Program-made: the position numbers and the translations under genes
Shown: piece after piece, positions 3,118 through 31,326 of the stretch
Numbering within the stretch: the stretch's first letter is position 1
Layout: each line of letters starts with the position of its first letter
Assembly (NCBI GenBank): GCA_963674595.2
Contig: CAXXFV010000003.1
Span: forward strand, 96,001 to 160,000
Reading direction: 5' to 3'
Origin: a bacterium
Lineage (GTDB): Bacteria > Zhuqueibacterota > Zhuqueibacteria > Residuimicrobiales > Krinioviventaceae
Length of the DNA: 64,000 nt
Notes under the pieces: model-generated
Database searches by the model: none
What the model was told of the DNA's origin: nothing
What the model saw: only the letters and a program-made list of their open reading frames with translations

Positions 3118-3126
3118 TATTTTCTA

Positions 3127-4992: not shown

Positions 4993-5033
4993 TATTGGGA
5001 ATTCCTGTTGATGCTTTTGGATAAACCCAAACT

Positions 5034-7667: not shown

Positions 7668-7751
7668 TAGACACAATCCAAGACAACGACATATCGAGTT
7701 TTTCGCCCTTGTTTATGATATACAGAATTTCTAAAACCAAGGACAAATGCA

Positions 7752-10724
7752 ATGTCTAAATTATTCGACCAGCTCACAAGTGATACCACTCTAACGACTG
7801 CATGGGAAAAGGTAAGATCAAACGCCGGGGCAGCAGGTGTCGATCAGATTACTGTGAGACACTTTGAGGAAAATGTCAATGAAAAGCTGATTATCCTCAA
7901 AACCTCTCTAATCGACGGTTCATACCAGCCCTTGCCTTTAAAAACATTTCGAATTAATAAAGAGGACGGACGAAAACGTACTTTACATATTCCCACAGTT
8001 CGAGATAGGATTGTCGCTCAAGCTTTAGTGATGGTAATTCAGCCGATTTATGAAAAGATATTCCACAATTGCAGCTATGCATACAGGCCGGGATTATCTT
8101 CTAAAAAAGCATTGGATCGTGTTGAACGAAATCTAAAGCGTGGCAGGGTTTGGGTTCTTAACCTTGATATTATGGATTTTTTTGACAGTGTTAACAGAGC
8201 CCTTTTGATGAATTTGCTTGAACAGGAAATAGCAGATAAAAATATCCAGAAAATAGTCCGGTTGCTAATAGATTCATTTGAAAATGAAACCAACTCGGGG
8301 ATTGCACAAGGTCTGCCCCTCTCCCCTTTGCTATCCAATATTTATTTACACCCGTTGGATGACCGACTCGTGCGTGCACAATGGAATTACATCCGATATT
8401 CGGATAATATTTTAGTATTGGACAAAGAAGAATCACAGATAAACAAAGCATTTGATTGGATTAAAGAAGAGATGGAAAAACTGGATTTGACATGGAGCGA
8501 AGAAAAAACAGCTATTGTTCATTTAAAATCAGGCTTTTCATTCCTTGGTTTTCATTTCAATGAAAAGGGTAAACAGCCGGATAGACCTGCATTCGAAAGA
8601 CTGGACAAACGCATAGGTAGTCTGCTGGGAAAAGCTTTTCAATATACCGATGCACAAATGAAAAGCAAATTAGAGGCAATACTTCGTGGTTGGCTTAATT
8701 ACTTTGATATAAATGCAGATGATAAAAAAGAAATATTGGCTCAAGTTGATCAGAATATTCCGGGAGACGACAATGCACTTCCACGCAAAATAATCAAAGT
8801 AGTATTGGCATATCAGCTGGGAGATGAAGAAAGTGCACGGAATGAATTGAAAGCAGAAGATATTATGACTTCGCAGGATGCAAGGCTTAATTTCCAGTGG
8901 GGAATTATATGTGATATATTAGGTTTCCAAAATGAGGCAAGAGACAGCTATTTAGCAGCCTTTCGACAGGAACCAAACGATCCCGAAACAGCCTTTCAAA
9001 TAGGCTTATACTATTTAAAGCGAAACCAGCACGACCAGGCCATTCGTTATTTACAAAAATCAGTACAGTTAGATTCTGAAACTGCATTATACCAATTTAC
9101 ACTTGGCATTGCCCTAAAAAATTATTCACTGCATGGCGCTGCCGGAAAAGCTTTGAAAAAGGCATACGACCTGGAACCATCCCTCAGACATATATTAGAC
9201 AAAACTCCCAAACCAAGTGATAACGATGAGAGATACAAAAAATTTTCAGATAATGATATTGATTTATTTCTTAGACTATTCAATGGTCGGGAAGGTGTGC
9301 ATGCAATACAATGGCTTAATGATGATGGTAGAACGGGATACTCTAGTGTAAAGAACCGGATTTCTCCTTCTGACATAAAAGCCCACTGGCAGGGTGGTAT
9401 TACGCTGGGCATGTACTTGATGCGGATGGATAATACTGTCAGCCATCTTGTTTTTGATATTGATGTTACCAGACAGGCTAGGAGTTTAATTTCTGATGAG
9501 GAAAATTTGCATGAATGGCAGGAGTTTGTACTGAATGATGTGCATCTTGTCAGGTCAGTTTTAAACGATCTGGGCATTCATGCGGTGGCCGAAGACTCCG
9601 GTTACAAAGGTGCTCATTTATGGGTATTTTTTAACGAACCTCAACCTGCCCGACGTATTATTAATTTTGCGAGAAAAGTAATCCAAAAAGCAGGGCCACC
9701 ACCAACAGGACTTCACCGGGAAATATTCCCCAATCAACCTTCTGTTTCGGAAAAAGCACTAGGACCTCTCGTCAAAATTCCCATGGGTTTGCACAAGTTG
9801 ACGCAAAAGAGATGCGAATTTCTAAATGAAACAGGCCAACCGGTTAATAGTCCATTTGACTTTATAAAAAAAATAAAGGCTGTAACAACAAAAGAACTGC
9901 TTACAGCTTTCGAGAAAACCAGGTCAACTGCAAGGCTCGACAAAACCAAAATAAAAAAACAAGACAGTGAAAAGCTTGACAAAATTTTTAATGGTTGTAA
10001 CGTTCTTGCCTATTTGCAGGAAAAGGCCATAAAAGAACACCAACTATCCCACATGGACCGATTAACCTTATTGTGTGTTATCTCTTTCCTTGGCGAGGCA
10101 GGGAGGCAAAAGCTACATGAAATTATCAGTAACTCAACAAATTACGATTTCAAAATTACAGAAAGATGGTATCAACGAAAACGGGGTTATCCTGTCAGTT
10201 GTCCAAAAATTCGAATTTGGCAAAGCAACATTACCCCTGCTGTAGGCTGCTATTGTAAGTTTAAAGAAAATCCTGGAAATTATCCTTCTCCTCTACTTCA
10301 CGCAGATGAAAATTATATCAGTAAATTAAAAAAGAAAATTAACAAAGAACTGAAACAAAACAAAAGCATTAAAGATTCGCCAAAACAAAGCCAAGACTAT
10401 GCTGAGCCCAAAGCAAACAATACCGAAAAAGACAAACACGAAACGAGATCAAATGACAAAATAGTCGAGAACAATAAATCTCAATTGAATAACAAGGAGT
10501 CAAATAATGGTTCAGGAGTCCAAAAAGAAATATTAGAAGATATTGTAGAAAAATATTTAAAATTGCTGACGAAAAAGCGGAATATTGAACGACAACTTTT
10601 ACAGATTGAAGAAAAACTAGACCAAATAGCAACAGATAATGGTGGCGATACAATTGAGACCAAGATGGGAAAATTGATAAAAAAGACGGAAAACGGCAAA
10701 ACAAAATGGCTATTAGAATTATAA
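7752..10724 (+). CDS. CRISPR-associated reverse transcriptase - TPR - AEP primase-polymerase fusion (CART-CAPP type)
   Basis: RT motifs AAGVDQ, IPTVRDR, SYAYRPG, LDIMDFFD, QGLPLSP, YSDN, FLGF. TPR repeats at about aa 380-475. AEP motifs FDID, SGYKGAHLW, EIFP/VKIP. Cys-containing PriCT-like domain. Directly upstream of cas1. Confidence 0.9.
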   Translation: MSKLFDQLTSDTTLTTAWEKVRSNAGAAGVDQITVRHFEENVNEKLIILKTSLIDGSYQPLPLKTFRINKEDGRKRTLHIPTVRDRIVAQALVMVIQPIYEKIFHNCSYAYRPGLSSKKALDRVERNLKRGRVWVLNLDIMDFFDSVNRALLMNLLEQEIADKNIQKIVRLLIDSFENETNSGIAQGLPLSPLLSNIYLHPLDDRLVRAQWNYIRYSDNILVLDKEESQINKAFDWIKEEMEKLDLTWSEEKTAIVHLKSGFSFLGFHFNEKGKQPDRPAFERLDKRIGSLLGKAFQYTDAQMKSKLEAILRGWLNYFDINADDKKEILAQVDQNIPGDDNALPRKIIKVVLAYQLGDEESARNELKAEDIMTSQDARLNFQWGIICDILGFQNEARDSYLAAFRQEPNDPETAFQIGLYYLKRNQHDQAIRYLQKSVQLDSETALYQFTLGIALKNYSLHGAAGKALKKAYDLEPSLRHILDKTPKPSDNDERYKKFSDNDIDLFLRLFNGREGVHAIQWLNDDGRTGYSSVKNRISPSDIKAHWQGGITLGMYLMRMDNTVSHLVFDIDVTRQARSLISDEENLHEWQEFVLNDVHLVRSVLNDLGIHAVAEDSGYKGAHLWVFFNEPQPARRIINFARKVIQKAGPPPTGLHREIFPNQPSVSEKALGPLVKIPMGLHKLTQKRCEFLNETGQPVNSPFDFIKKIKAVTTKELLTAFEKTRSTARLDKTKIKKQDSEKLDKIFNGCNVLAYLQEKAIKEHQLSHMDRLTLLCVISFLGEAGRQKLHEIISNSTNYDFKITERWYQRKRGYPVSCPKIRIWQSNITPAVGCYCKFKENPGNYPSPLLHADENYISKLKKKINKELKQNKSIKDSPKQSQDYAEPKANNTEKDKHETRSNDKIVENNKSQLNNKESNNGSGVQKEILEDIVEKYLKLLTKKRNIERQLLQIEEKLDQIATDNGGDTIETKMGKLIKKTENGKTKWLLEL

Positions 10725-10777
10725 TAAATACCAAAATCAGCATCCAGTTCTTTTAAATGAGTTAAAGGTCAATTTTT

Positions 10778-11767
10778 ATGAGCAATCTTTATGTTACCGA
10801 GCAAAACTCTGTAATTAGACTATCATCCCGCACTTTGCAAATTACAAAGGGAAAGGAAAAGATAGCACAAGTTCCAATGATAAATGTTGACAGCATTCTC
10901 GTTTTTGGAAATCCTCAAATTACAACTCAGGCAATGGCTGTTTTATTGGAAGAGGGAATTGATGTCGCTTTTCTATCGACAAACGGGAAACTGCGTGGAC
11001 GGTTAACATCATCTGTGTCCAAAAACGTACTGTTACGAGTTGCTCAATACGAACGTCAATTGGATGATGAATTTCAGGTTAATTTGGCTCGAACGATTGT
11101 GAAGTCGAAAATCCGTAACGGGCGTAAAGTAATAAAGCGCTTTTTATACAACCATAGTAATTTTGATTTTTCCAACGAACTTTTATTAATTGAAACGACT
11201 TTAAAAAAACTGGATAACCAAAAAACGGTTAATAGTCTTATGGGTTCCGAAGGGATTGCAACCGCTGCCTATTTTAAGGCTTTTGGAAAGATGTTTTTAA
11301 AAGACTTTCGTTTTGAAACGAGAAGCCGCCGTCCTCCCAAAGATCCTGTGAACGCTTTATTAAGTTTTGGCTATACACTCCTTACTAATGAGATTTTGGC
11401 CCTGGTAACAGCGCATGGACTTGATCCGCATATTGGTTTTTTACATGGTATTGTTTATGGAAGGCCATCGCTTGCTTTGGATATCGTTGAAGAGTTCCGC
11501 CACCCTGTTATTGACAGGTTTGTGCTGAATTTATTCAATTATCGCAAGCTGAATAAAAATGATTTTGAAAAAAGTGAAAATGGAATATTATTAACAGATG
11601 AAGGAAGGAAAACATTTTTTGCTCATTATGATAAGTTACTAAAGCGTAACCTGAGCAAAGAAAAAGGCCCCATTACCTTACGGGATTTATTAAAAAGACA
11701 AGTACGTTGTATGACAGCAACAATAAAAAACAATGCTCCATATAAACCATATAAATTTCAAGCTTAA
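10778..11767 (+). CDS. cas1: CRISPR-associated endonuclease Cas1
   Basis: LYVTEQ, EGIATAAYF, RRPPKDPVNALLSFGY, GFLH and LALDIVEEFR motifs. Confidence 0.98.
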   Translation: MSNLYVTEQNSVIRLSSRTLQITKGKEKIAQVPMINVDSILVFGNPQITTQAMAVLLEEGIDVAFLSTNGKLRGRLTSSVSKNVLLRVAQYERQLDDEFQVNLARTIVKSKIRNGRKVIKRFLYNHSNFDFSNELLLIETTLKKLDNQKTVNSLMGSEGIATAAYFKAFGKMFLKDFRFETRSRRPPKDPVNALLSFGYTLLTNEILALVTAHGLDPHIGFLHGIVYGRPSLALDIVEEFRHPVIDRFVLNLFNYRKLNKNDFEKSENGILLTDEGRKTFFAHYDKLLKRNLSKEKGPITLRDLLKRQVRCMTATIKNNAPYKPYKFQA

Positions 11768-11768
11768 A

Positions 11769-12050
11769 ATGTTTGTTATTGTTTCATACGACATTGTGGA
11801 TGATAAAAACCGGACCAAGATTGCAAAAAAGATGTGCAACTACGGTTCTCGCATTCAGTATAGCGTATTTGAGTGCAATATAAATAAAACCCAATACAAA
11901 GAAATGAAAAAACAGTTAAAAAAGTTTATAGATCCGGAAAAAGACAGCATTCGATTTTTTAGACTATGTGGTGAATGTAAACGTAATGTAGAATCTTTAG
12001 GAATAAAGAAAGGGTATGTTCCAGAAAAGGATGAGGCCATTATAGTATAA
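11769..12050 (+). CDS. cas2: CRISPR-associated Cas2
   Basis: Start moved to ATG 11769 (MFVIVSYDI...RIQYSVFEC...DSIRFFRLC). Confidence 0.97.
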   Translation: MFVIVSYDIVDDKNRTKIAKKMCNYGSRIQYSVFECNINKTQYKEMKKQLKKFIDPEKDSIRFFRLCGECKRNVESLGIKKGYVPEKDEAIIV

Positions 12051-12108
12051 AGAAAAACTTGACAAAAAAGCAGAAATTTTGTATCCTTTTATTAAAATAA
12101 GTGCAATT

Positions 12109-12317
12109 TAAAAAAACCATTTACTCAAAACACCCTTAAAAAGGGGTAGTATAGAGTAAAAGCTGTAGTTTCATTAAAATAAAGGCGCTTAGGACAGTTT
12201 TTTGTTGATTTTTACCCCGAAAAATAGCTTAAAAAAAGTTCGAAAAACGTCAAATTTTCGAGAATATGGTTTTGCACAACTTAACCTATTGTTATTAAAG
12301 GGTAAATTAAGGCAGCT
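12109..12317 (+). promoter_or_regulatory. CRISPR leader of array 2
   Basis: Copy of 3127-3334 with 6 substitutions and one extra A. Confidence 0.9.
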
Positions 12318-15300
12318 GTCGAAATACTACCCAGGACTAATACTGGATTGAGACTTTGTTCAGCAATTCCATAAATCTGAATTACAAACGGTCGAAATAC
12401 TACCCAGGACTAATACTGGATTGAGACAGATGCTGCTGAGTGTACCAGCAAGAAGCCGTGAACGGTCGAAATACTACCCAGGACTAATACTGGATTGAGA
12501 CATCATAAATACAAAAAACGTAACAAAAAATTTTAAAGGTCGAAATACTACCCAGGACTAATACTGGATTGAGACATCTTCACTAAAGATCTGAATACTA
12601 CATTCACTAGGCAGTCGAAATACTACCCAGGACTAATACTGGATTGAGACGTCATTTGCAATGAATTAAAAAAAATGAAAACAGGCAAGTCGAAATACTA
12701 CCCAGGACTAATACTGGATTGAGACTTAAAACAACCAACCATGTTTTTAATGATTTCATGATGTCGAAATACTACCCAGGACTAATACTGGATTGAGACA
12801 ATACTACGATCAGTATGATAATTATTGCAACAAAAAGTCGAAATACTACCCAGGACTAATACTGGATTGAGACAAAATCGTACAGTCTTCCATCTTCAGT
12901 TCGATCAATGCGTCGAAATACTACCCAGGACTAATACTGGATTGAGACATTACAAAGCTGGCACCATTTGTCGTCTTTGAATTTAGTCGAAATACTACCC
13001 AGGACTAATACTGGATTGAGACATATATTCAGAAAATGCATTTTCTAAAGAAATACATGTCGAAATACTACCCAGGACTAATACTGGATTGAGACTTTCT
13101 GCAAATACAATTTCAAATTCATCTTTTTTAAGTCGAAATACTACCCAGGACTAATACTGGATTGAGACAACTCTTTTTACAGCTGTTTTTGTGATAACCG
13201 GCACAGGAGTCGAAATACTACCCAGGACTAATACTGGATTGAGACATTTTGGCTTCGACCATTAAGGCCTTTGTCCATTTAAAGTCGAAATACTACCCAG
13301 GACTAATACTGGATTGAGACTTACAATCACTCTTGCTATAATAAACATAACAAGTCCCCGTCGAAATACTACCCAGGACTAATACTGGATTGAGACTTTA
13401 TAAGCTTAATACGCATTGTCCTTTATGCTCCTTGTCGAAATACTACCCAGGACTAATACTGGATTGAGACTATGAACGCCACAAATGTCTAATTCATAAC
13501 CATGGTGTCGAAATACTACCCAGGACTAATACTGGATTGAGACATTTTGCGCCCTCTGTTGTCTGGTTTAATTCATATTGGTCGAAATACTACCCAGGAC
13601 TAATACTGGATTGAGACTCCTTCAGCCCATGGCCATACAACAGCCAGACTGAATGTCGAAATACTACCCAGGACTAATACTGGATTGAGACAGTTTTAAT
13701 TATTGGCTAATTTTTTAACCAATTCAATGTCGAAATACTACCCAGGACTAATACTGGATTGAGACTTATTGACTTCGAAAAATGCAAAATTCGTATCACC
13801 TGTCGAAATACTACCCAGGACTAATACTGGATTGAGACCAAAATAATATACTCAATAATATACTCAGCTTCATAACGTCGAAATACTACCCAGGACTAAT
13901 ACTGGATTGAGACAAATATCTTACCCGCCACATGGGTTTTAACCATATAGGTCGAAATACTACCCAGGACTAATACTGGATTGAGACTTTTTTTCTCTTC
14001 TATAATGATTAGAAGACGATTGGGTCGAAATACTACCCAGGACTAATACTGGATTGAGACATTTACTCACCTGCAGCCTCTTTCTCAAAGTATTCTTTGT
14101 CGAAATACTACCCAGGACTAATACTGGATTGAGACTTAAAACAACCAACCATGTTTTTAATGATTTCATGATGTCGAAATACTACCCAGGACTAATACTG
14201 GATTGAGACAATACTACGATCAGTATGATAATTATTGCAACAAAAAGTCGAAATACTACCCAGGACTAATACTGGATTGAGACAAAATCGTACAGTCTTC
14301 CATCTTCAGTTCGATCAATGCGTCGAAATACTACCCAGGACTAATACTGGATTGAGACATTACAAAGCTGGCACCATTTGTCGTCTTTGAATTTAGTCGA
14401 AATACTACCCAGGACTAATACTGGATTGAGACATATATTCAGAAAATGCATTTTCTAAAGAAATACATGTCGAAATACTACCCAGGACTAATACTGGATT
14501 GAGACTTTCTGCAAATACAATTTCAAATTCATCTTTTTTAAGTCGAAATACTACCCAGGACTAATACTGGATTGAGACAACTCTTTTTACAGCTGTTTTT
14601 GTGATAACCGGCACAGGAGTCGAAATACTACCCAGGACTAATACTGGATTGAGACATTTTGGCTTCGACCATTAAGGCCTTTGTCCATTTAAAGTCGAAA
14701 TACTACCCAGGACTAATACTGGATTGAGACTTACAATCACTCTTGCTATAATAAACATAACAAGTCCCCGTCGAAATACTACCCAGGACTAATACTGGAT
14801 TGAGACTTTATAAGCTTAATACGCATTGTCCTTTATGCTCCTTGTCGAAATACTACCCAGGACTAATACTGGATTGAGACGGTTAGTACGGTACAATTTT
14901 CTAGACAACAATTCATGAGTCGAAATACTACCCAGGACTAATACTGGATTGAGACTTATAAAATCAAATAGTGTACAAGACGCAATCCTTGGTCGAAATA
15001 CTACCCAGGACTAATACTGGATTGAGACATATAATCCGTCACTACCAATCAGCTGTGGTACATTTTGTCGAAATACTACCCAGGACTAATACTGGATTGA
15101 GACACATAGATTCCACCATAGTCATTACAAAAATCATTATTGTCGAAATACTACCCAGGACTAATACTGGATTGAGACTTTTGATACATCTGGTCAACAA
15201 TTTCTGATGGCGGAAGTCGAAATACTACCCAGGACTAATACTGGATTGAGACTCATATCTTACCTTTCTCATACCGAGCTCTCGGACAAGTCGAAATACT

Positions 15301-15843
15301 ACCCAGGACTAATACTGGATTGAGACATTACATTGGGTTCACCTATTGTTTTGGCCATAAGGCGTCGAAATACTACCCAGGACTAATACTGGATTGAGAC
15401 AAAATTGTTACTGGCGAACGTAAAAACTCAGATCCAAGTCGAAATACTACCCAGGACTAATACTGGATTGAGACGAAATTATTCCGCAAGAAGCCAGATA
15501 TTTCTAATAATGTCGAAATACTACCCAGGACTAATACTGGATTGAGACATATTCTACTACTTTTTTTATTTTTGTGTTATAAGGTCGAAATACTACCCAG
15601 GACTAATACTGGATTGAGACATAATAATCAAATTTATGAAAAAAATTAACCATTACAGTCGAAATACTACCCAGGACTAATACTGGATTGAGACTTTAAC
15701 TCCTGCTAGAGCCAGCATTATCCATTTTGCCAGTCGAAATACTACCCAGGACTAATACTGGATTGAGACTTAAAGAAAAAAGAGCGAGCGGCAATTGACG
15801 TATTTTGTCGAAATACTACCCAGGACTAATACTGGATTGAGAC
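12318..15843 (+). CRISPR. CRISPR array 2: 48 x 37-bp repeat GTCGAAATACTACCCAGGACTAATACTGGATTGAGAC, 47 spacers (37 unique)
   Basis: Counted repeats from 12318 to 15807; differs from the array 1 repeat only at position 5 (A vs G). Spacers 6-15 recur as spacers 25-34. Confidence 0.99.
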
Positions 15844-15883
15844 AATTCTTGTTATATAAGAAGCATTTTTTTACTGTTATTCG

Positions 15884-15920
15884 GTGGAAATAGACCTAAT
15901 TACCACGGAACGATTGAGAC
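15884..15920 (+). repeat. Diverged terminal CRISPR repeat of array 2, at the junction with the prophage portal gene
   Basis: GTGGAAATAGACCTAATTACCACGGAACGATTGAGAC, 37 bp, after a 40-bp spacer; 22/37 identical to the repeat, with the last 9 nt intact. Confidence 0.8.
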
Positions 15921-16631
15921 CCCTCCTTCAATCAGTAACACAAATGTCGGATCACCGATCCTGACAACAGCGTTTTTAATAGATTGCTGAATTCTTAACA
16001 ATATCTCAGCAACAAAAGGCATGGAATTAAATAGACTCACACCCTGGGGATGGCCGTCTCTTAGATCAAATGTTAAATACTGAACAAATTCCGGGTGCTC
16101 TAATATAACAGGTTTTGCAGCTTCATGAGGTATGGAAGCTAACCACAATCTACTGTCTTTCCGGATAAACCGGACCTTTGAAGCATCACCGACTTTTAGC
16201 CGGTCTACACCATTCAAACCTGCAAAAGGAACTGTCTCAAAGACACCGTACCCATTGGCCAGAGCTGAATCATAGACTTGTTGTAAACACCCGTGAAGTC
16301 CTTTGTGGAAATACCCAACCCTGATCTCTTTTTTAAAATTGTTCAAGGCTTTTAAAACATTCGGATTATCACAACGATATTCAAAATCACCGATCAATCT
16401 CCGAAGCTTTAATACAGCTACATCCAAAATAGGAATGGCTTCGCGGAGAATATTATATATCTTGAGATTGTACCGTAACGGCTCATATCCGTTTAAATAG
16501 GTCTGAAATGGGCTGTCACTTGCAGAATAAAGTTGGGATTTAACAATAACATTGTTGGATTGTTTTGGTGGGAAATATTTATTAAGATTGAATTTTGGAA
16601 GGTTCATTAACTGCCCATATATAGAATGCAC
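15900..16631 (-). pseudogene. Phage portal protein, C-terminally truncated
   Basis: YNILREAIPILDVAVLKLRRLIG and PQGVSLFNSMPFVAEILLRI resemble portal proteins; lies downstream of terL. Only about 240 aa, and the last codons (VSIVPW*) are read from the reverse complement of the terminal repeat. Confidence 0.7.
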
Positions 16632-16740
16632 TCAAACAACACGTTCTATATATAGCAGAATAGGGGTAATTAATCAATATTTTGTGGGTTATACACCCAT
16701 AGCTTGTAAAAAGGTAGTTTCTCTTGGATGGAATTGCAAT

Positions 16741-16836
16741 AAAAAAACGGACCCATGAGAGACAATGCACTATGGAAGGTAGGTTCGGGATACTCCCTAG
16801 CCTTCGGTTAGTACATGCAGTCAGAGGTCCGTTAAA
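16741..16836 (-). other. Long imperfect hairpin followed by T-tract (terminator/structured RNA, or degenerate attC)
   Basis: Minus strand AACGGACC...GAC-TGCATGTACTA..GAAGGCTAGG...CCTACCTTC..TAGTGCATTGTC...GGTCCGTTTTTTT. Confidence 0.55.
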
Positions 16837-16928
16837 GTCCCAATCCCGCTGTAGAAATCAAGTCTCTTCTTAAAATTGCCGATCTTAAAATGTCTCAATC
16901 TCGGCGGAGCGTAGCGACGCAAGGCCGC
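16837..16928 (-). repeat. Two CRISPR-repeat-like units (ending GATTGAGAC and GATTGGGAC) 55 bp apart
   Basis: Minus strand GCGGCCTTGCGTCGCTACGCTCCGCCGAGATTGAGAC (16928-16892) and TTAAGAAGAGACTTGATTTCTACAGCGGGATTGGGAC (16873-16837); the second is 23/37 identical to the repeat at 15884. Confidence 0.5.
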
Positions 16929-17002
16929 TTATAATAAGAAATTGCTAATACTTCTCTATTATCTTGGCATTATTCATCAACAACTCCTGAATCTATATTT
17001 CC

Positions 17003-17133
17003 GCCTAACGTTTAGTGTAACCTGTCCGGCGAGAATAATGCAGCCAGCCGGAAAAAGGACAGGTAACACAATTATTGAAACATTTTAAATAACGTACCGG
17101 CGCAAGCCGGTCAGGTTGACACGTATGTTATGT
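17003..17133 (-). other. attC site (131 bp)
   Basis: Minus strand R'' ACATAAC ... R' GTTAGGC; arms AACGTTTAGTGTAACCTGTCCGGC / GCCGGTCAGGTTGACACGTATGTT pair with extrahelical bases. Confidence 0.85.
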
Positions 17134-17144
17134 GATTTATGTAG

Positions 17145-18113
17145 CTATAAATCAACATCTTTATATATTTCTTTAACTTCTTTAATTGATTTGATTTTCT
17201 CACCCCATTCAGATACAAACTTTTTTCTAAAATGCTCTAACTCATTAGGTCTATAATACTCAATAATCATCCAATATAATTTCAAAATTGTTGATATAGT
17301 CGTTATTAATAAAACATCAGAATTTTTTAAACTTCTAATATGATCTAAATATAGTTTACCTTTACTAATACTTATATGCTCTTGAAATGAAGTTCCATGC
17401 ATCACATTTGAATAATGCCTATAAAATATCTCATATTCTGCTCTACGATTTAGTCTTTCAGCCATATCACAAATTGAACTTGGGCCAGAAAGTTTATACC
17501 AGGGAGCTTCTTGCTTCTTTATTGACTTTTCTTTTTGCTTTTCAAAAGCTAAATTTATTTCTTTGTAATCCTCAGATAGTAAGAAATTATTATAAGTTTC
17601 CAATTCTTTTTTATATAATTCATTATTAATTTTTAATTCTTCAATTATGAATTCATCGAATTTTTCCAAAATCTCTAAAAATTTATCACTTTCGCTAAAA
17701 CCTGTAGTTACTTTTTTAGCCAAATCCATCTCCTGACGTAAGATCCAAACATAATATTGTTTAGACCGAGATTTTGTATTTTTTTCAAATATCCATTCTA
17801 TATATAAACTTGACTCAAATAAGGCTCTTGCTTGAAGTTGAGCTGTAAATATTGCTCCCTTAGCAAATAAAATTTCAATTGAATCAAGCATACTGACAAC
17901 ATGTTTTAAAAGGACTGATAAAATGACTATATCTTCAATTTCACGCTTTGAACTTGAAAAACATCTGGGCATTAAATTAGTACCATAATCAACTAAAGAT
18001 TTTAACAAATAGATTTGGGATTGGAAAAATTTCTTTACATCCTTTTCCACTTTTTCACGATTTAATATATTTTTATATGCATCATCTTTTTCGGGCATAT
18101 TACTAATACTCAA
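17145..18113 (-). CDS. Integron cassette gene, DUF5677-like (HEPN-like) protein
   Basis: ARALFESSLYIEWI and YRHYSNVMHG motifs; very AT-rich; bounded by attC sites. Confidence 0.6.
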   Translation of the reverse strand: MSISNMPEKDDAYKNILNREKVEKDVKKFFQSQIYLLKSLVDYGTNLMPRCFSSSKREIEDIVILSVLLKHVVSMLDSIEILFAKGAIFTAQLQARALFESSLYIEWIFEKNTKSRSKQYYVWILRQEMDLAKKVTTGFSESDKFLEILEKFDEFIIEELKINNELYKKELETYNNFLLSEDYKEINLAFEKQKEKSIKKQEAPWYKLSGPSSICDMAERLNRRAEYEIFYRHYSNVMHGTSFQEHISISKGKLYLDHIRSLKNSDVLLITTISTILKLYWMIIEYYRPNELEHFRKKFVSEWGEKIKSIKEVKEIYKDVDL

Positions 18114-18135
18114 TCAAATATTGATTTTTATTACC

Positions 18136-18270
18136 ACCTAACGTTGCGTTTCACCTGCCAAAGGGCTGAGACGCACGATCGTCAAATCAAAGGCTGAAAT
18201 TCATGAGAGCACTGTCCGATAACAATTACAAACACTGCCCTTTGGTCAGAGTGCAAACGCTTTGTTAGCG
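18136..18270 (-). other. attC site (135 bp)
   Basis: Minus strand R'' CGCTAAC ... R' GTTAGGT; arms GCGTTTCACCTGCCAAAGGGC / GCCCTTTGGTCAGAGTGCAAACGC. Confidence 0.87.
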
Positions 18271-18305
18271 TAAAATTCACAAATATATTTAAAAAAGATA
18301 TGTCT

Positions 18306-19565
18306 TCATTTTAAAAAGGTCATTTTGCATACCTTACTAAACTTGTTTTCTACATCAAACTTATAGAAATAGACACCACTACTTACGACCTGACCGTTGA
18401 AATCTGTGCCGTTCCAGATAAAGGAGTGAAAGCCTGTAGCCTGATTTTCAATTCTCCATCGCCTGACTAGTTTTCCATAAATATCGTAAATTGAAAGAGT
18501 CACATTATTCACTATCTTTAGAACATAGCAGATATGTGTGGTAGAGTTGAAAGGATTCGGGTAATTAGCATAAAGGCGAAATTGATTGGATTTACTGATC
18601 GGATGTTTATCTTCAATCGTTGTGTGTGTATTCCTATGAATCAATGTAAAATTTCTTGTATAATTCGGATTTAAATAGCCATAAAAAAAGCGCGGATTAA
18701 AAGTAATGTTTGAGACAATCCTCCGATAACCGATTCCCTTAACGATAGTATTTCCTATTTGGTACGTTCGCCAATTTGCTCTTACCATAGCTGCAACTTT
18801 ATTCGAGACATTACCTTCTATTGAATGAAGCGTTGTACCACTAATGTTTCTCACCAGTCCGCTATGAGACCTATCAATCCCTGTCGTATTTGAGAATAAT
18901 ACATAATCCCCTGCTTTTGGTTCAAGATGATTGTCATCTCCAATTTGCCAATTTGTATTAATTTCTTCAATCGTCATGAATTGCCAATTTTCATTTCTCC
19001 CGAATCCAGCAACAATCCTATAAACTGTTGACATATTCCAATCTTCAGTACAATTGCCACCGTCTGTTGCACCTCCCCCAAAGGGATCTCCTGCTTGCCA
19101 ATAAACCCAGGAGACGAATTCGCTGCACCAGCCTCCTCCATGCCCATGATACTTGCCCGGTGTGTTCCCATCCGTATTTCCCAACTCGTTTTGTGCAATA
19201 GATACAATTGTCTCACCATTTACTTCGGAGTTGTCTATTACATCAGCAAACTCATACGAACAGGGTATAATGGTATACCTGGTATTATTAGAAATGTTAG
19301 TAAACTCATAAGTTCCGTTTTCATTTGTATAGTTTGTAACAACATTATTATTCCCCAATAACAGGACCTGAATATTTGATATTGGTTGGTTGTTTGTGTC
19401 GCTTATTGTGCCCCCAATGGTTATTACCGAATTTTTTGTCTGGTAATTACATGTGTCTTCATCTGAATAGTATAAATATTGTTCATCTCTTTCCTCAGCC
19501 GATAATGTGGAGAAAACTGAACAGTCAATTATTATTAAACTTAGAACGAATATTATATCTTTCAT
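18306..19565 (-). CDS. Integron cassette gene: secreted CHAP-domain amidase with carboxypeptidase-regulatory-like domain and FlgD-Ig/T9SS-like CTD
   Basis: Signal peptide; CHAP motifs WCSEFVSW, HSGLV, SIEGN; CTD NYPNPFN...WNGTD...SSGVYFY. Confidence 0.78.
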   Translation of the reverse strand: MKDIIFVLSLIIIDCSVFSTLSAEERDEQYLYYSDEDTCNYQTKNSVITIGGTISDTNNQPISNIQVLLLGNNNVVTNYTNENGTYEFTNISNNTRYTIIPCSYEFADVIDNSEVNGETIVSIAQNELGNTDGNTPGKYHGHGGGWCSEFVSWVYWQAGDPFGGGATDGGNCTEDWNMSTVYRIVAGFGRNENWQFMTIEEINTNWQIGDDNHLEPKAGDYVLFSNTTGIDRSHSGLVRNISGTTLHSIEGNVSNKVAAMVRANWRTYQIGNTIVKGIGYRRIVSNITFNPRFFYGYLNPNYTRNFTLIHRNTHTTIEDKHPISKSNQFRLYANYPNPFNSTTHICYVLKIVNNVTLSIYDIYGKLVRRWRIENQATGFHSFIWNGTDFNGQVVSSGVYFYKFDVENKFSKVCKMTFLK

Positions 19566-19646
19566 ATTTAATTTATTCCATGATTAAGGCAAAATAGAAT
19601 TTTTATTCAAACCTTCTGTAATTGCTTTTATACTATCACTTTATAT

Positions 19647-19678
19647 ACGCTAACATAGTATTTAACGAGTTGGATAAC
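19647..19678 (-). other. attI site
   Basis: Minus strand GTTATCCAACTCGTTAAATACTATG/TTAGCGT; GTTAGCGT is the exact complement of the first cassette's R'' ACGCTAAC. Confidence 0.7.
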
Positions 19679-19819
19679 TTATTATAGATTGCAAAAGTTT
19701 GTCGTATAATAAAATCCGGCAATCAAATATAAGTTAGATAAAATCAAAAGGTTGTTGCTTAATAATAATGCCTTGAGTTTTATGTTATACGACTTGTATA
19801 ATATAACCTGTTTTACAGG

Positions 19820-20812
19820 CTATAAATCATCAATCGGACTTCGAATGCCTTTCCCACCTTTATTCAGCACATGCGTATATATCATTGTTGTGTTCAAGTT
19901 TTTGTGCCCTAATAATTCCTGAATTGTGCGTATGTCATATCCGGCTTCTAAAAGATGTGTAGCAAATGAATGCCGAAGTGTATGACACCCTATATGTTTT
20001 GCAATACCGGATTTGAGTTTTGCTTCACGCATGGCTCGTTGGATCATCCATTCGCCTTGATGGTGCCGCCGAAGAATTCCGCTCTCAGGATCTTTTGAAA
20101 TATTGGGGGCAGGAAACACCCATTGCCATGCTGTGGATGTTGAGGCATTTGGATATTTTTTATCAAGTGCAAAAGGCAGGGCAACAGTACCATATCCCTG
20201 GGAAATATCTTTTTTATGAAGACGCTTTACTTTTTCAATATGTACTTGAAATTCTTTGATGTATTGTTCGGGCAAAACTGTGATGCGATCTTTGGCACCT
20301 TTTGAATTGTGTACGGTGATTTGCTTGTATCCAAAATCAATATCTTTAATTCGCAATCCAAGGCATTCTCGTTGACGTAAACCCGAACCGTACATTAAAC
20401 CTGCCATTAGTTTTGCTACACCGTTTAAATGTGCAAAGATACTTTTAACTTCCTCACGGGTTAATACAACAGGCAGCTTGACGGGCTTTTTCGCCCATAT
20501 AGTTTTGTCCAATTCCCCAATATTTTTATTGATAATATTTTTAAATAGAAAGATTATTGCACATAATGCTTGATTCTGAGTACTTGCAGACACATTTTCT
20601 TTAACAGCAAGATGCGATAAAAACCGGTTTATTTCTTTCTCGCCCATATCTTTGGGATGTTGTTTATTATGAAACAGCACAAACCGTCGTACCCAAAAAA
20701 CATACGCTTGCTCTGTTTTGCGGGAATAATGCTTTGTGCGCAGCACGGCCTGTAACTGTTCCAGCAGTTTTATTGGTTTGACAACAGGAATGTGATCTTC
20801 AACCAGGTGCAA
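19820..20812 (-). CDS. intI: Integron integrase IntI
   Basis: [19 protein letters not shown], IntI-specific insertion [14 protein letters not shown]...WQWVFPA...[28 protein letters not shown]. Confidence 0.96.
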
Positions 20813-21280: not shown

Positions 21281-22960
21281 TTATCTGGCCTTTCCAGCTC
21301 TGCTCCACACCATTGATCCCCCTATTGTTCCACCAATTTCTTCACTGATTAAAGAATAAGCTGCGGCATGGAGTAAGTGATCTCCACTAATGGGCTTACT
21401 CCAAACCTGACGATTCGTATTAGGGTCAAAATATCTGACTGGTAATGTAAAATGGTCTAATAACTCACCATCAGATACTTTTCTCCAGTTTCTCGGAAGG
21501 ATAAATCCATCCTGCTCACTTTTTAAAATATTTTTCAAAACACGGTCAAGAGCTTGTGTCCGGTCAAGAGCGATTATTTTATTATCAATATCAACTGTCT
21601 GGTCCTGTAAACTCCCCCCTTTTTTATACCAACACAGCCATACTTTACCAGGTCGGGATGCTTGTAACTCTTTTGCTTTTGTGGTATCATATTCACCGTC
21701 TATTGTACTAACTTCAACATTATACTGATCAATAAGAAAATCCAGGGTATCCCAATCATAAGCTGCTCCACAAGCAACAAGACGTTTTCTTCCATTATAT
21801 CGTTCCCAGATGAAATAGTGATGCCGTCCACCTGGATCAACTCCCATAAAAGTATTATTTCCTGTCGATGGCATGAGATAATCATCTTTACATTTTTCCA
21901 TCAAAGCTTCAGTTATTTTACTTCCCTTGGGAGCAAAAGCACGACCCAGGTTTGAATTGTGAAACAACTGTGTTTTAGTAGTATCTCCCAGCGCTTCCTG
22001 AAATTCATTCCATAGCTCCAAGAGGTCAGTATCAAAACTGATCAACCTTGAAAACCTGTAACCGACTCTTGGTTTATCCGGATATTTGGCAATCCATTCA
22101 CCAACCCATGGTTCAGATATAATCTTTTCACATTTATCACAGATGATTTGAGGTTTTCCATTTTCCTCTCTTATGGGTTTAAAAATCAATCCTTCAGAAT
22201 CAACCTGCCGGACAACATGTTTAAACCAGTCCAGTTCAATGTATTTATTACAATGCTGACACCGGGTCAGGTATCGGGATTGATTGGTAGACCTGTATAA
22301 ACCATCCACACCACAATTCTCAACAGTCGGTCGTGATGAATAGCGGAGCATTTTATATTCAGATGCTTTTAACCGGTCTTTTAACTGGTCCAGATTATCC
22401 ATGTCTGATTCATCATATTCATCAACAAATGCGATATCCACAGGATTTTCGACAAACTCTGTCCTTGAATTCGATCCCACAAACCGCATGGTCCCTTTAC
22501 CATAATGTTTCTGTAGGACACTGTCACTTTCACCCCCTTCATCCAAATGACTTTTGTACAAGGGAACATAACTCAAAAGTTTGTCAATCCGGTCATGTAC
22601 AAAGTTTGATCTCAGGGTCTGGTTCGGCATGACATACAAACCACGTAATCCACTGGAAACATAATGCAAGAGTTCAACCAGCAACCGCTCCGTAATTCCA
22701 ACCTGTACCGGTTTGATGAACACGATAAACTGAGGCATTTCAGTTTTAGGTTTTATACCCTTGGCAATGTCATTGAAAAAGCCAGGCGGTGCATATAAAT
22801 CCTGTAGCCAGTCTCTGTTGATAAATGACATTCTTTTAAAATGCCGGTTTAAATGATGTTCTCTGGCCAAACCAAACACAGGTGCCAAGGTATTAATACT
22901 CTCCCTGAATTTTAATAATTGAGCAGCCGTTAAGGATGTCAAATACTCAGGAGTGACCAT
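21281..22960 (-). CDS. terL: Terminase large subunit (GpA-like)
   Basis: Start moved to ATG 22960. Walker A KPVQVGITE, Walker B AFVDEYD, CxxC pairs, RNase H-like MGVDPG, C-terminal DHLLHA. Confidence 0.88.
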   Translation of the reverse strand: MVTPEYLTSLTAAQLLKFRESINTLAPVFGLAREHHLNRHFKRMSFINRDWLQDLYAPPGFFNDIAKGIKPKTEMPQFIVFIKPVQVGITERLLVELLHYVSSGLRGLYVMPNQTLRSNFVHDRIDKLLSYVPLYKSHLDEGGESDSVLQKHYGKGTMRFVGSNSRTEFVENPVDIAFVDEYDESDMDNLDQLKDRLKASEYKMLRYSSRPTVENCGVDGLYRSTNQSRYLTRCQHCNKYIELDWFKHVVRQVDSEGLIFKPIREENGKPQIICDKCEKIISEPWVGEWIAKYPDKPRVGYRFSRLISFDTDLLELWNEFQEALGDTTKTQLFHNSNLGRAFAPKGSKITEALMEKCKDDYLMPSTGNNTFMGVDPGGRHHYFIWERYNGRKRLVACGAAYDWDTLDFLIDQYNVEVSTIDGEYDTTKAKELQASRPGKVWLCWYKKGGSLQDQTVDIDNKIIALDRTQALDRVLKNILKSEQDGFILPRNWRKVSDGELLDHFTLPVRYFDPNTNRQVWSKPISGDHLLHAAAYSLISEEIGGTIGGSMVWSRAGKAR

Positions 22961-23351
22961 TTTCACCCCTGTTCTTGAAAATGGCCAGCTCCTCAGTAAG
23001 AATATCAAGCGCTCTGTCTTTGGTCATCTCTTTCGTTTCAACAGGACCACCATCAGCACCGGTAATTTCCTGCCTCCGGGAATATCCCCGGTCCTTACCC
23101 TTTGTCGACAGGATAAACTTAATGGCCCACGGCTGAGCATTCAGAGCAGCATCTTCAAGTTTCAGTTCAACTTTGTCAAGGGTTCGTTCTTTTTCTTCTT
23201 CGAAAACAGCTTTTACCGTAGCATACTTTTGTATATAGTTATATATAGTTTTACGCTCACAGCCTAAGGCCATAGCCGCATAAGTAGCATTACCTCGTGT
23301 TTTCCTTAAAGCCCCAATGACCTGTTTTGTCGTAAAAATATTTTCTGCCAT
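22947..23351 (-). CDS. terS: Terminase small subunit (putative)
   Basis: N-terminal HTH (AAMALGCERKTIYNY), WAIKFILSTKGKDRGY, EITGADGGPV; overlaps terL. Confidence 0.75.
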   Translation of the reverse strand: MAENIFTTKQVIGALRKTRGNATYAAMALGCERKTIYNYIQKYATVKAVFEEEKERTLDKVELKLEDAALNAQPWAIKFILSTKGKDRGYSRRQEITGADGGPVETKEMTKDRALDILTEELAIFKNRGENGHS

Positions 23352-23404: not shown

Positions 23405-24091
23405 TTAATTACTATTCTTTAAAGTTACATATTGGAAGCCATCCGGTCCGCTTCCGATCATTGTCAAATCAGGCCTGAATAACGGAGGTCTCACGACCGA
23501 CGGCTCCCAGGTCGAAAGCTCTTGTTCCTGCGGTATCATCACAATCTTTCCGTTCTGAATATCTGACAAAACTTTTCTAAATAACCTGATTCCCATGGGC
23601 TGTAATTCACGCCGCCATAATGTGGAAGCCGTATCATCTGATCGGATAAAACAAAAGTCATGTGCCGCAATTGGTCCGGCATCAACATTATCTGTCAACC
23701 AATACACCGTACCACCCGTTACTTTTTCATTCATCTTGATGGACCAGTATATAGCATCCCGACCTCGATGCAATGGCAGCAATGAAGGATGAAAACCGAT
23801 CGCTCCAAATCTCGTTTTCAACCGGGTCTTTTTACTGATAAAATCATGGGAATGGGCAGCAATAATCAAATCCACATTATCCGGTAATGATTCAGCATTT
23901 AATTTTCCAGCTTCTACAAGAACGACTTTATCTCTGACTGCAGTATGATAAAGTCTGTCATATTTTCCACTATATGTTGACGGAGCACTGACACCGACAA
24001 TATTATATCCCTGTTCCTTCACCATGTCATAGACCAGTTTCCCAAAATACTTTTGACCTGTAATAAATATATTAATATCCTGTGGATTCAA
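23405..24091 (-). CDS. Formyltransferase family protein
   Basis: FHPSLLPLHRGRDAI, TGGTVYW, DAGPI motifs. Confidence 0.88.
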   Translation of the reverse strand: MNPQDINIFITGQKYFGKLVYDMVKEQGYNIVGVSAPSTYSGKYDRLYHTAVRDKVVLVEAGKLNAESLPDNVDLIIAAHSHDFISKKTRLKTRFGAIGFHPSLLPLHRGRDAIYWSIKMNEKVTGGTVYWLTDNVDAGPIAAHDFCFIRSDDTASTLWRRELQPMGIRLFRKVLSDIQNGKIVMIPQEQELSTWEPSVVRPPLFRPDLTMIGSGPDGFQYVTLKNSN

Positions 24092-25236
24092 TTTTCACCT
24101 CGGGTTGAATTATCTGTTTGCTTACCAATGTATTTAAAACTTTGAACAGCACGAAAATGCCCACCATATCCGGCACCACGTATGTTCCCTTTGCCGGTTT
24201 TTAAAATACTTTTAATCGAAGAAAGTTTGTTATCACCATATAAGGATGCTTTTTTATGAATCCATAACGGAGATCTTCGTAAATAGCCACACAGTTGCGG
24301 GTGACTGGTATGGAAGAAAGTTGAATACTTTTTAAAACATCTGCCAAAGCCGTCCAGGTGATACTGTCCGATCCAATTTAAAAAGGTTGTTCCGACACCA
24401 GCCCCTTGCCATTCCGGCATAACGACTAACCGAGTCGCCCGATACGCACGAGCCGTAAAAAGCGGACTGACCATGACATGTGAAACAAGCTCACCATCGA
24501 CAGTGCCCACAAAAGCTTCTGCAGCCGGGGGAATCGGTAAATCTAAATAATAATGCGGTTTAAAATACTTCCAGTAACTATAGTCTGTCTTCCTGATTTC
24601 CAGTTCAAATTTTGGTCTTCGCCGAAGACGCCCCCGTTCAAAATTTTTACTTTTCGTATCAAATACCCAATCAGGCTCGAGCCAATCCAAAACATCATAA
24701 TGCGGTGTTAATAAGACACATTTTCCCTTCGGATTTGAGCGACGCCAGGATTTTTGAAAAGCCTGTGCACCTATTTTGGCTATTTGCCTGTCGACAACAC
24801 TGGTGAACTCATCAATAACAACCTGTTCCGGTTTTTCACAAATAATTCTGGCCAAACCAGCCCGAAATTTTTCACCATTACTCAAAACATGAAATGGTCT
24901 CAACCATGAAGGGACATCTCCGAGTCCAACTGCCGCCAAAGCACCTGTGACGTTATCGAATGAACCGTCAGGAATAATACAATCGATAATTGGTTTATCT
25001 GCCGGCCACCCTTCTTCATAATTATGGATCAAATTTTCTTTAAAAATCAATTTGCCGATGGATGTTTTGCCGCTTCCGGACGGACCGACAACAACACCTA
25101 TATTCCAACTGTCTTCTACATCAATATCAGCAATCAAATCAAAATTACAACCACTCTCAGCATTAAATAAACTCTTAACACGAGCAGCCCTGTAACTCGA
25201 AAAATCCGAACATTTATTATGGACTTCTATTTTCAT
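24088..25236 (-). CDS. ABC-type ATPase fused to GNAT acetyltransferase
   Basis: GPSGSGKT, LSNGEKFR, VIDEFTS; GNAT motif RLVVMPEWQGAGVG. Confidence 0.85.
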   Translation of the reverse strand: MKIEVHNKCSDFSSYRAARVKSLFNAESGCNFDLIADIDVEDSWNIGVVVGPSGSGKTSIGKLIFKENLIHNYEEGWPADKPIIDCIIPDGSFDNVTGALAAVGLGDVPSWLRPFHVLSNGEKFRAGLARIICEKPEQVVIDEFTSVVDRQIAKIGAQAFQKSWRRSNPKGKCVLLTPHYDVLDWLEPDWVFDTKSKNFERGRLRRRPKFELEIRKTDYSYWKYFKPHYYLDLPIPPAAEAFVGTVDGELVSHVMVSPLFTARAYRATRLVVMPEWQGAGVGTTFLNWIGQYHLDGFGRCFKKYSTFFHTSHPQLCGYLRRSPLWIHKKASLYGDNKLSSIKSILKTGKGNIRGAGYGGHFRAVQSFKYIGKQTDNSTRGEN

Positions 25237-25796
25237 ACAGTCACCACCTTACACGTATATCCTTGTTCCATTAATTCATTATAGACCCGTTCCTGCTGTT
25301 CTTCACTATCACACATCACAATGACGCCAAACTGCTGTTTGTAGTGAATGCCTTCCTCACTACTTGAATCCGGGGTATCATCTGAAATTTCTTCCTGATT
25401 ATGGGATAGTTCTTTTAAAAGTTTATTGATATCTTCATCCTCTGATTGAACTTTATCCAACAAGTCAGTTAAAAGCTTTTCATCTGTTTCCGCTAAAGCA
25501 GATATCGGGTCAAAAACAGACAGAGCAAGCATTTCCTCCTCTTGAGTAAGGTCTACATATTTTACAGGGACCTGTGTCTCTTTGTTTTTCATAGCAAGTG
25601 TGACTCGCAAATGACCATCTATTAAATGTCCGGTTTGTTTATTTATTATAACGTCCTGAATCCAACCTATCTCTTTTAATAAACCCTGTAAAACATCCTG
25701 CTGAAACTTGGGATGAATACGATAATTAAAAGGATTTGATAAAATGTTAATCGGGTTTTCCTCTCCGCTTCCGATTATTCTGTTCTGCCACTTCAT
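25233..25796 (-). CDS. ParB/Srx N-terminal-like phage protein
   Basis: NPFNYRIH, IGWIQDVII, LIDGHLRV. Confidence 0.8.
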   Translation of the reverse strand: MKWQNRIIGSGEENPINILSNPFNYRIHPKFQQDVLQGLLKEIGWIQDVIINKQTGHLIDGHLRVTLAMKNKETQVPVKYVDLTQEEEMLALSVFDPISALAETDEKLLTDLLDKVQSEDEDINKLLKELSHNQEEISDDTPDSSSEEGIHYKQQFGVIVMCDSEEQQERVYNELMEQGYTCKVVTV

Positions 25797-25906
25797 AGCA
25801 CCTCCAGGCTTTCAGAGATTTAGTAATATTGTTAGTTATCGTCTATCTCTGCGCCCTCCCGATCCATAGGTTTATTTTATCCGTCAGTAATGCATGTCAA
25901 TTCTCC

Positions 25907-26227: not shown

Positions 26228-26235
26228 CCCTTTTT

Positions 26236-26805: not shown

Positions 26806-26808
26806 ACC

Positions 26809-28926: not shown

Positions 28927-28970
28927 TCAGATATTCCTTTTCCATTTGTTTGTGTCTGTCAGACGGATCA

Positions 28971-29459: not shown

Positions 29460-29485
29460 TTTTTTCTCACTTTCGATTTTTATTG

Positions 29486-29734: not shown

Positions 29735-29754
29735 ATTTTTTCACCTTTCACTTT

Positions 29755-30072: not shown

Positions 30073-30131
30073 AATTCCTTCATTTTAATCCGGGCCGCCG
30101 TAGTTAAACAACGACCCGGGCGGGTGAAAAC

Positions 30132-31319: not shown

Positions 31320-31326
31320 GTCCCTC

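Follow-up and report, generated by a model that had tools for sequence, protein, structure and literature searches.

Half of a phage portal gene fused to a CRISPR repeat at three loci of one bacterial genome: a possible relic of phage-CRISPR recombination

In the defective specialised transducing phage lambda dgal, late genes have been replaced by neighbouring host DNA through an illegitimate joint. Joints between phages and CRISPR arrays have also been described: according to a preprint (bioRxiv 10.1101/2020.10.09.333658), recombination between a targeting spacer and the phage genome enhances transduction of whole CRISPR systems, which is credited there to Varble 2019 and Watson 2018, and a repeat-like phage attachment site (attP) by the integrase of PhiAP1.1 recombines with a CRISPR repeat, the repeat halves then flanking the prophage. 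Here we describe a join between the terminal repeat of a CRISPR array and a truncated prophage portal gene in a bacterium of the Zhuqueibacterota (GenBank assembly GCA_963674595.2). The window, that is, the whole stretch of 64,000 nucleotides analysed, corresponds to positions 96001-160000 of contig CAXXFV010000003.1 (hereafter C3:96001-160000; other contigs of the assembly are denoted likewise), and the same join recurs at two further loci. We consider it on balance probable that the join is the relic of a single old phage-CRISPR recombination that later spread to three loci.

In the window, the join is defined by three features:

15884..15920, + strand: terminal repeat of the family-2 type, 33/37 to the family-2 consensus
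15920..15921, no strand: join J, where the repeat's last base is followed by the third base of portal codon 237
15900..16631, - strand: half-portal frame of 243 aa, with a probable ATG at 16607

Residues 1-237 of this frame are portal sequence, and residues 238-243 together with the TAA stop are the reverse complement of the terminal repeat; the segment LLIEGG is thus followed by RGTNYTDL in a database homologue and by VSIVPW and the stop in the window. The half portal matches PHROG 30703 ‘portal protein’ (E 7e-28) at profile positions 4-205 of 386 only, with a full-length paralogue reaching E 1e-58, and Pfam and NCBIfam searches with it gave no match. The window copy is equivalent to residues 1-230 of a 467-aa portal, and DNA identity of ~92% to two full-length paralogues in the genome starts exactly at 15921. 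The alignment of homologues therefore places the breakpoint next to 15920, and bears out the first-pass annotation, which had read portal coding sequence directly after the repeat and a portal frame stopping inside it. No repeat-like recombination site is present at the break in the intact paralogues, and family-2-like matches with <=7 mismatches were not found outside the arrays.

A portal profile search of the assembly returned eight places: three full-length portals (frames of 456-475 aa on C26, C3 and C10), three half copies of 243 aa each and two weak matches (E 0.22 and 0.37). The full-length paralogues (467-475 aa) rule out that the 243-aa protein is naturally full length. The portal fold is borne out by the AlphaFold model of the full-length C10 paralogue (45-sequence alignment, predicted local distance difference test (pLDDT) 81.4), which matches solved portals, including HFTV1, P23-45, T4 and lambda, with probability 1.00 and yields 122 matches at E <= 0.001. 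In this model, the break maps to the loop connecting strand 222-227 to helix 234-256, after the N-terminal alpha/beta domain, which is modelled confidently (pLDDT 88-97, residues 51-200), and the half portal stops before the helix. The missing part presumably comprises the stem, clip and crown. A clip-domain decoy for the terminase was considered and dismissed, as the fragment, by our reading of the model, ends before the stem and clip helices. Short database homologues were also considered as truncations of the same kind; of the eight matches fetched (seven of them short), none has a repeat-coded tail, and the 241-aa match P0008 continues beyond the IEGG break.

An assembly artefact, as a repeat-rich genome might produce, is an extremely unlikely source of the join or of its triplication. 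The assembly does consist of 37 contigs (97.6% complete, 5% estimated contamination) with many near-identical phage and CRISPR repeats, and spacers 25-34 of the array at 12318-15843 are an exact repeat of spacers 6-15, a ten-unit block duplication that may be real or an effect of assembly. However, the join is bridged by a separately built Logan contig from run X1, 209 nt long at depth 13.1, which matches 15812-16020 with 0 differences and so excludes a binning or scaffolding artefact; X1 may be the genome's sample of origin, and is not an independent strain. Moreover, each of the three joins has its own flanks, left and right, with about 8% divergence, and run X3, from another study, contains one contig with a left flank of the type seen at the other two loci and a loose end at 15895. 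The junction, which the first-pass annotation wanted confirmed with reads, thus stands. That annotation had named three outcomes that would speak against it (portal homology ending far from the join, a naturally full-length protein and an unsupported junction), and in each respect the opposite was found.

The terminal repeat follows a family-1 array with its leader:

12105..12317, + strand: family-1 leader of ~213 nt, nearly identical upstream of the window's second family-1 array
12318..15843, + strand: family-1 CRISPR array of 48 identical 37-nt repeats, ending ATTGAGAC
15844..15883, + strand: last spacer, 40 nt, in register (other spacers 35-40 nt)

The leader common to both family-1 arrays indicates that the array is transcribed from left to right. 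The terminal repeat is therefore leader-distal; it lies one spacer length past the last consensus repeat, in register, and keeps both repeat ends, including the 8-nt tag, so that the array alignment upholds the first-pass description of a 37-bp repeat in correct register with an intact end. Its further description as a diverged repeat holds only with respect to its own array, to which 22/37 positions correspond (8/9 of the first bases and 9/9 of the last, GATTGAGAC). With 33/37 positions shared with family 2, it is not a decayed copy of the adjacent family-1 repeat, and the window array is therefore a chimera of two repeat families. Chance likeness was rejected on the basis of a control in which 4 of 850,388 windows (contig C16, + strand only) reached 22/37. 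The consensus repeats of families 1 and 2 themselves agree at 8/9 of the first and 10/10 of the last bases. Family-2 arrays occur at C3:44067-50132, C3:65354-66310 and C29:107438-107631, each with its own conserved leader. At the leader-distal end, family-2 arrays have a conserved trailer (C3:66274-66460, C9:149578-149764, C3:43882-44030 and C29:107670-107815) that consists of the repeat's first 29 nt, ~77 variable nt and a 37-nt GC-rich motif restoring the GATTGAGAC end, after which come a short piece resembling a spacer and part of a repeat; the trailer may represent either an insertion into a repeat or a dedicated array end.

The identical join is found at three loci, in the window, at C3:66461 (C3b) and at C9:149577, with the portal cut at the same base and with the same last 26 nt of repeat, including three private substitutions; C3b and C9 keep only these 26 nt. 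The settings differ. C3b ends a 13-repeat family-2 array beside a second cas locus on C3 (cas locus A), the window join ends the family-1 array of the window's own cas locus (cas locus B), and the C9 join consists of one interrupted repeat without leader or cas genes, beyond which lie a response-regulator gene and other host genes. The shared private substitutions point to one origin of the join, and its position beside locus A, locus B or no cas genes at all implies that it is older than, or independent of, the present arrays. Of the two explanations offered by the first-pass annotation, the second, in which an aberrant event joined a broken prophage end to the array, fits the data insofar as a broken prophage is indeed joined to an array end and its late genes are gone; the event did not, however, take place at the window's array, because the repeat belongs to the other family, the same join is present at two more loci and the X3 contig carries their type of flank.

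How could such a join have arisen? The leader-distal repeat of a family-2 (type III-D) array would have been fused, at the boundary between repeat and spacer, to the portal gene between codons 237 and 238, the partner being a temperate tailed phage that had integrated in a tRNA-Gly gene. The intervening DNA, with the remainder of the portal gene, the genes for head, tail and lysis and the second attachment site, would have been lost, and the prophage would thereby have been immobilised. The likeliest mechanism would be homologous recombination between a portal-derived spacer after the terminal repeat and the portal gene itself: with the prophage downstream of the array and in the right orientation, this exchange would remove the remaining array, the attachment site and every late gene, in line with what is observed. 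The fused unit, comprising array trailer, half portal and the packaging, early and lysogeny genes, would subsequently have been inherited or copied to three loci, with the half portals continuing to exchange with intact co-resident prophages. The window's family-1 leader and repeats, together with its cas locus, would have been grafted later onto the old family-2 terminal repeat, for which the first nine and last ten repeat bases, alike in both families, could have served as a guide.

The phage DNA starts exactly at the repeat/spacer boundary, and this base-exact position suggests a portal-derived spacer; a random deletion end-point would rarely hit the last base of a repeat. Two processes respect the boundary exactly, namely spacer recombination and Cas1-type strand transfer. 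We favour the former because the array is antisense to portal mRNA, a condition for any functional type III spacer, because the phage encodes RecT and YqaJ, and because recombination between spacers and phages has been reported.

Exchange between the half portals and intact phages is directly visible. Over 791 nt, identity among the five close portal copies is 91-94%, and the truncated ones form no clade: truncated and full-length copies are told apart by only 2 of 36 informative sites, 369 of the 630 informative-site pairs fail the four-gamete test, and the nearest relative of each truncated copy shifts along the fragment and is often a full-length copy. Short near-identical tracts connect truncated and full-length copies, for example 3 differences in 160 nt between C3b and the full-length copy C3a. 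This shows that the half portals have recombined with intact phages, and this continued exchange would explain why they look like healthy coding sequence.

Several observations weigh against this scenario. The spacer-guided step rests on the exact boundary and on an orientation that has a 1-in-2 chance of its own, and the founding spacer is not observable, because the crossover would have consumed it. Not one of the 146 extracted spacers (the last 40-nt spacer excluded) matches the genome's own prophages; self-targeting was thus discounted, the single match outside arrays being 20 nt long and located on C18 in non-prophage sequence. The reciprocal joint, a portal 3' half with a repeat, was not found in the assembly, as would be expected if the event was a deletion. 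One join would have had to reach three loci whose integrases and attachment sites differ (tRNA-Gly in the window and tRNA-Pro on C9). The ratio of non-synonymous to synonymous substitution rates (dN/dS) is 0.02-0.04 at dS 0.26-0.50 for all pairs, those of two truncated copies included. At C3b, five changes, amounting to four synonymous codon replacements, lie at most 20 nt from the join; gene conversion can reach the edge of homology, and selection on the half-portal frame explains these changes equally well. Finally, C3b and C9 show 1 difference in the 81 nt left of the join and 5 in the 20 nt to its right, and such low divergence suggests that the trailer may be under constraint.

These last points lead to a different explanation, in which a module of ~0.8 kb, consisting of the conserved trailer and the half portal, has been kept by selection as a putative guide or interfering protein; we regard it as possible but rather improbable. 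As a guide, read-through from the array would be cut in the terminal repeat to give a AUUGAGAC-tagged RNA antisense to portal mRNA. In type III systems, pairing between tag and anti-tag marks a transcript as self, and the local half-portal transcript would be tolerated through full tag/anti-tag pairing, whereas intact phage mRNA would not; the flank of the full-length portals (...TTTGTACCTCT) is indeed not complementary to the tag. With the antisense strand, the intact 8-nt tag and no + strand terminator in a consensus scan of 15700-17300, the geometry would allow a built-in guide against the portal. The terminal repeat is, however, altered 2-3 nt upstream of the expected Cas6 cut and is predicted to fold unlike both consensus repeats. 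As a protein, the N-terminal portal domain would interfere with the assembly of related phages, which is compatible with a break in the loop that ends the confidently modelled domain. A selected module would account for the 243-aa frame being intact at all three loci with a dN/dS no higher than between full-length copies, for the exclusively synonymous changes near the C3b join, for the trailer being nearly invariant between C3b and C9 when the portal part differs by about 8%, and for a C3b half portal that is intact although the terminase gene is gone. On the other hand, the short stretch of repeat left at C3b and C9 speaks against a conserved module, and the mosaic tracts shared with intact phages explain the intact frames without selection. 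Because these tracts show exchange directly, we rank ongoing exchange with intact portals ahead of selection on the 243-aa frame, and keep selection as a second reading that fits the data in view of the synonymous changes at C3b, the conservation of the 81-nt trailer and the C3b half portal that has outlasted its terminase.

No truncated portal of this kind was found in 18 genomes of the family, 4 of which have only full-length homologues (39-44% identity), or among the inspected short matches of 369 database homologues, which is a further argument against a selected module. Relatives of the 243-aa protein were absent from collections of genome, viral and metagenome contigs, the exact junction pattern gave 0 matches in genome contigs and 0 in metagenome contigs (the genome's own records possibly being excluded there), and 40 relatives contained no portal DNA match. 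A bolder version combines the ideas: a portable, selected add-on to type III arrays would act as a permanent guide against a co-resident phage family, be tolerated through the tag/anti-tag rule and be copied onto unrelated array ends, and type III-D loci would in addition reside in phage-sized, helper-dependent defective prophages. This we judge distinctly unlikely.

The helper-dependent part of this idea draws on the layout of C3, in which an intact-type prophage (prophage A) is followed by family-2 arrays with cas locus A, the C3b join and a prophage remnant (remnant B), and then by cas locus B with family-1 arrays, the window join, remnant C, an integrase gene and a tRNA fragment. Prophage A (ending at C3:42491) and remnant B (ending at C3:84058) stop at the same base, and an integrase gene is present only in the last unit. 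With about 41.6 and 48.5 kb, the two units of cas locus plus remnant are close in size to the intact C10 prophage (~44.2 kb); these sizes were computed from coordinates, and the unit borders are inferred only from the ends of homology. On this evidence, the join might be the novel joint of a defective transducing phage resembling lambda dgal, with a CRISPR-Cas locus in place of the late genes, and its phage-sized, helper-dependent units would have entered in tandem beside an intact prophage by recombination in shared phage DNA. The tandem order, the sizes, the common end base, the position of the integrase and three intact relatives as possible helpers all agree with such an origin, as does the reported transduction of CRISPR systems via spacer-phage recombination (bioRxiv 10.1101/2020.10.09.333658). 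Yet remnant B has lost its terminase, with host-like type IX secretion system (T9SS) and Hsp70-like genes following the intact half portal, the C9 copy has neither cas genes nor an array, and the similarity in size, measured between borders of this kind, may be a coincidence. No second attachment site was found beside any join, and no convincing attachment-site repeats at the C10 prophage or the unit borders; the first-pass annotation had likewise seen no second attachment site in the window, and no direct repeat of the tRNA or of an attachment core was detected beside the joins. We consider a transducing phage unlikely.

The adaptation genes of cas locus B bear on the second process that could produce an exact boundary. 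Upstream of the array, the window contains:

2140..6352, + strand: Cas6-like gene and second family-1 array (11 + 13 repeats), split by an IS3-family element
6555..12050, + strand: genes for a Card1-like CARF nuclease, a fusion of reverse transcriptase (RT) and CRISPR-associated primase-polymerase (CAPP), Cas1 and Cas2
10778-11767, + strand: Cas1, upstream of the array
11733-12050, + strand: Cas2, upstream of the array

A CRISPR-Cas island could have been inserted by Cas1-type strand transfer into a resident portal gene, at a repeat boundary. The break falls exactly at the repeat end, one of the two sites at which Cas1-Cas2 transfers strands, and Cas1, Cas2 and RT/CAPP genes are adjacent. The polarity of the joint also fits the chemistry of Cas1-Cas2 strand transfer, with the 3' end of the portal sense strand joined to the 5' end of the bottom strand of the repeat. 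However, such an insertion would have left the other half of the portal beyond the island, and the assembly contains no orphan portal C-terminal half among its eight portal-profile matches; to the left of cas locus B lies another prophage remnant, which ends in a cI-like gene and not in late genes. Insertion of an island, the first of the two explanations in the first-pass annotation, was rejected for these two reasons. Of the portal 3' half, structural genes and tRNA-Gly 3' half that this annotation proposed to look for upstream of the cas operon, the first was absent from the assembly and the last from contig C3, and the DNA left of the operon is the remnant just named. As the joined repeat is moreover of another family than the adjacent array, and the same join is found beside a different cas locus and beside none, this explanation is largely refuted and we hold it to be very unlikely.

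Csx10, Csx7, Csx19 and a TIGR03986 RAMP protein place the window array in a type III-D context, with a weak Cas10/Cmr2 match that is below the cut-off (E 3e-5). Cas loci A and B are both of type III-D flavour, with protein identities of only 27-41%. Directly upstream of Cas1-Cas2, the window encodes a 990-aa protein (7752-10724, + strand) that combines a group-II-intron-type reverse transcriptase, TPR repeats, a CAPP domain (NCBIfam NF040561, 343 bits) and a Mu Gam-like C-terminus; cas locus A has, instead of this fusion, a separate 321-aa RT beside a 255-aa Cas1. A 731-aa type III RAMP protein (C3:91622-93817; TIGR03986, 311 bits) carries an N-terminal cold-shock domain. The IS3-family element, 1,265 bp in length, is present in five copies in the genome (98.6-99.9% identical), two of which are inserted in spacers of CRISPR arrays, at ~4135-5398 of the window (family 1) and at C3:44650-45914 (family 2).

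To the right of the join, the following features were identified in the prophage remnant:

16632..16712, - strand: portal upstream region, common to all five close copies and containing an inverted repeat
16742..16836, - strand: long hairpin followed by a T run, terminator-like or like a miniature inverted-repeat transposable element
16837..16928, - strand: family-2 array trailer remnant, with the 37-nt motif ending GATTGAGAC, a 32-nt spacer-like piece and a 23-nt partial repeat
16929..20782, - strand: copy-specific segment encoding a DUF5677 protein, a CHAP/T9SS protein and a XerC-like tyrosine recombinase
21281..23351, - strand: terminase large subunit (gpA type) and putative small subunit
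23405..34690, - strand: early region with PurN-like, ParB-like, replication, RecT and YqaJ genes
34286-34690, + strand: cI-like repressor
35253..36410, + strand: phage integrase
36477..36509, - strand: first 33 nt of tRNA-Gly(CCC), an attachment-site remnant at the right border of the prophage, adjoining the integrase

The early region is 91-96% identical to that of the intact C10 prophage, in which minor head, major head and tape-measure genes directly follow the portal gene. The window yielded no genes for head, tail or lysis functions, in agreement with the first-pass annotation, the CHAP/T9SS protein (18306-19565) having only weak matches to endolysin families. The 33-nt tRNA fragment is identical to the intact gene at C22:20589-20661 up to the anticodon loop; with the tRNA-Gly gene as query, C3 matched only at the gene's first 33 nt, no 3' half being present on C3, ARAGORN reported no tRNA in the window, and none was found in the first 170 kb of the contig. 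MutL, phosphofructokinase, peptidase and other host genes lie to the right of the remnant. Rfam returned 0 families at gathering score in the window, and no CRISPR repeats were found in it to the right of 16928.

The half portal lies between two array ends pointing towards each other. The second of them is at 16742-16928 on the opposite strand, and its trailer remnant (16837-16928) shares 84.6% identity with the C3:43730-43936 array trailer. The hairpin of ~95 nt has a folding energy of -44.6 kcal/mol (z -3.3; 0 of 200 shuffles fold as well) and recurs on C10 and C9, in each case upstream of the portal, as well as where a family-2 array ends (C3:43.7k); in the intact C10 prophage, it precedes the portal together with a degenerate partial repeat, and its end resembles the left end of the IS3 element (23/27 by eye). 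The interval between terminase and portal is hypervariable in all copies, ranging from about 4 to 17 kb (window 16864-20782, C10:45891-51944, C9:142000-148600 and C3:11009-27535), and contains host-like cargo (histidine kinases plus a lipase for C9, T9SS-sorted proteins for both the window and C3b); the copy-specific segment of the window (16929-20782) is absent from the C10 prophage. A sequence of ~200 nt (20783-20980) by the start of the XerC-like gene (19820-20812) recurs at more than 20 places on at least ten contigs with 70-80% identity. Between the ParB-like and small terminase genes lie a PurN-like formyltransferase gene (PHROG 9240) and a PHROG 11143 gene (23405-25236, - strand).

The phenomena involved here, phage-CRISPR recombination and the grounding of prophages, are known; this genome adds to them a base-exact, fixed join, a chimeric array and three diverged copies. 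We found no description of a natural, fixed product of spacer-phage recombination in the literature searched. A genome with three diverged joins, two type III-D systems and several intact phage relatives is a place to ask how CRISPR-Cas loci move between phage-derived contexts, and the join bears on how arrays exchange their ends. It also poses the question of whether a spacer that runs straight into its own target gene, with no repeat after it, can act as a permanent guide. Even as no more than a relic, the join would illustrate cleanly how a prophage was immobilised when it recombined with a CRISPR array.

Several described systems resemble the join in part. With the degenerate terminal repeats of other arrays, the window's terminal repeat shares its leader-distal position, its register and the retention of both ends and the 8-nt tag, and differs from them in belonging to the other repeat family instead of being a decayed copy of its own. 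With spacer-protospacer recombination, credited in that preprint to Varble et al. 2019 and Watson et al. 2018, the join has in common that phage DNA begins where a spacer would, that the system is type III, that the phage has recombinases of its own (RecT and YqaJ) and that CRISPR-Cas is linked to packaging genes; the product would, however, be a chromosomal relic fixed at three loci rather than a transient transducing molecule, and neither the founding spacer nor the reciprocal joint is visible. PhiAP1.1 of Streptococcus pyogenes (bioRxiv 10.1101/2020.10.09.333658) is also a prophage next to the terminal repeat of an array that has been remodelled by phage recombination; unlike in PhiAP1.1, the break in the window falls midway through the portal gene, a tRNA-Gly gene borders the integrase end and there is no repeat at the other end. 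As in lambda dgal, the early, lysogeny and packaging genes are kept and the unit stands in tandem with an intact relative; the differences are that the putative cargo is a type III-D CRISPR-Cas locus of 20-27 kb and that one copy has no terminase. Finally, like grounded (cryptic) prophages, the remnant has lost one attachment site and its morphogenesis genes and recombines with intact relatives, whereas its deletion stops at the very base where a CRISPR repeat ends, and does so at three loci.

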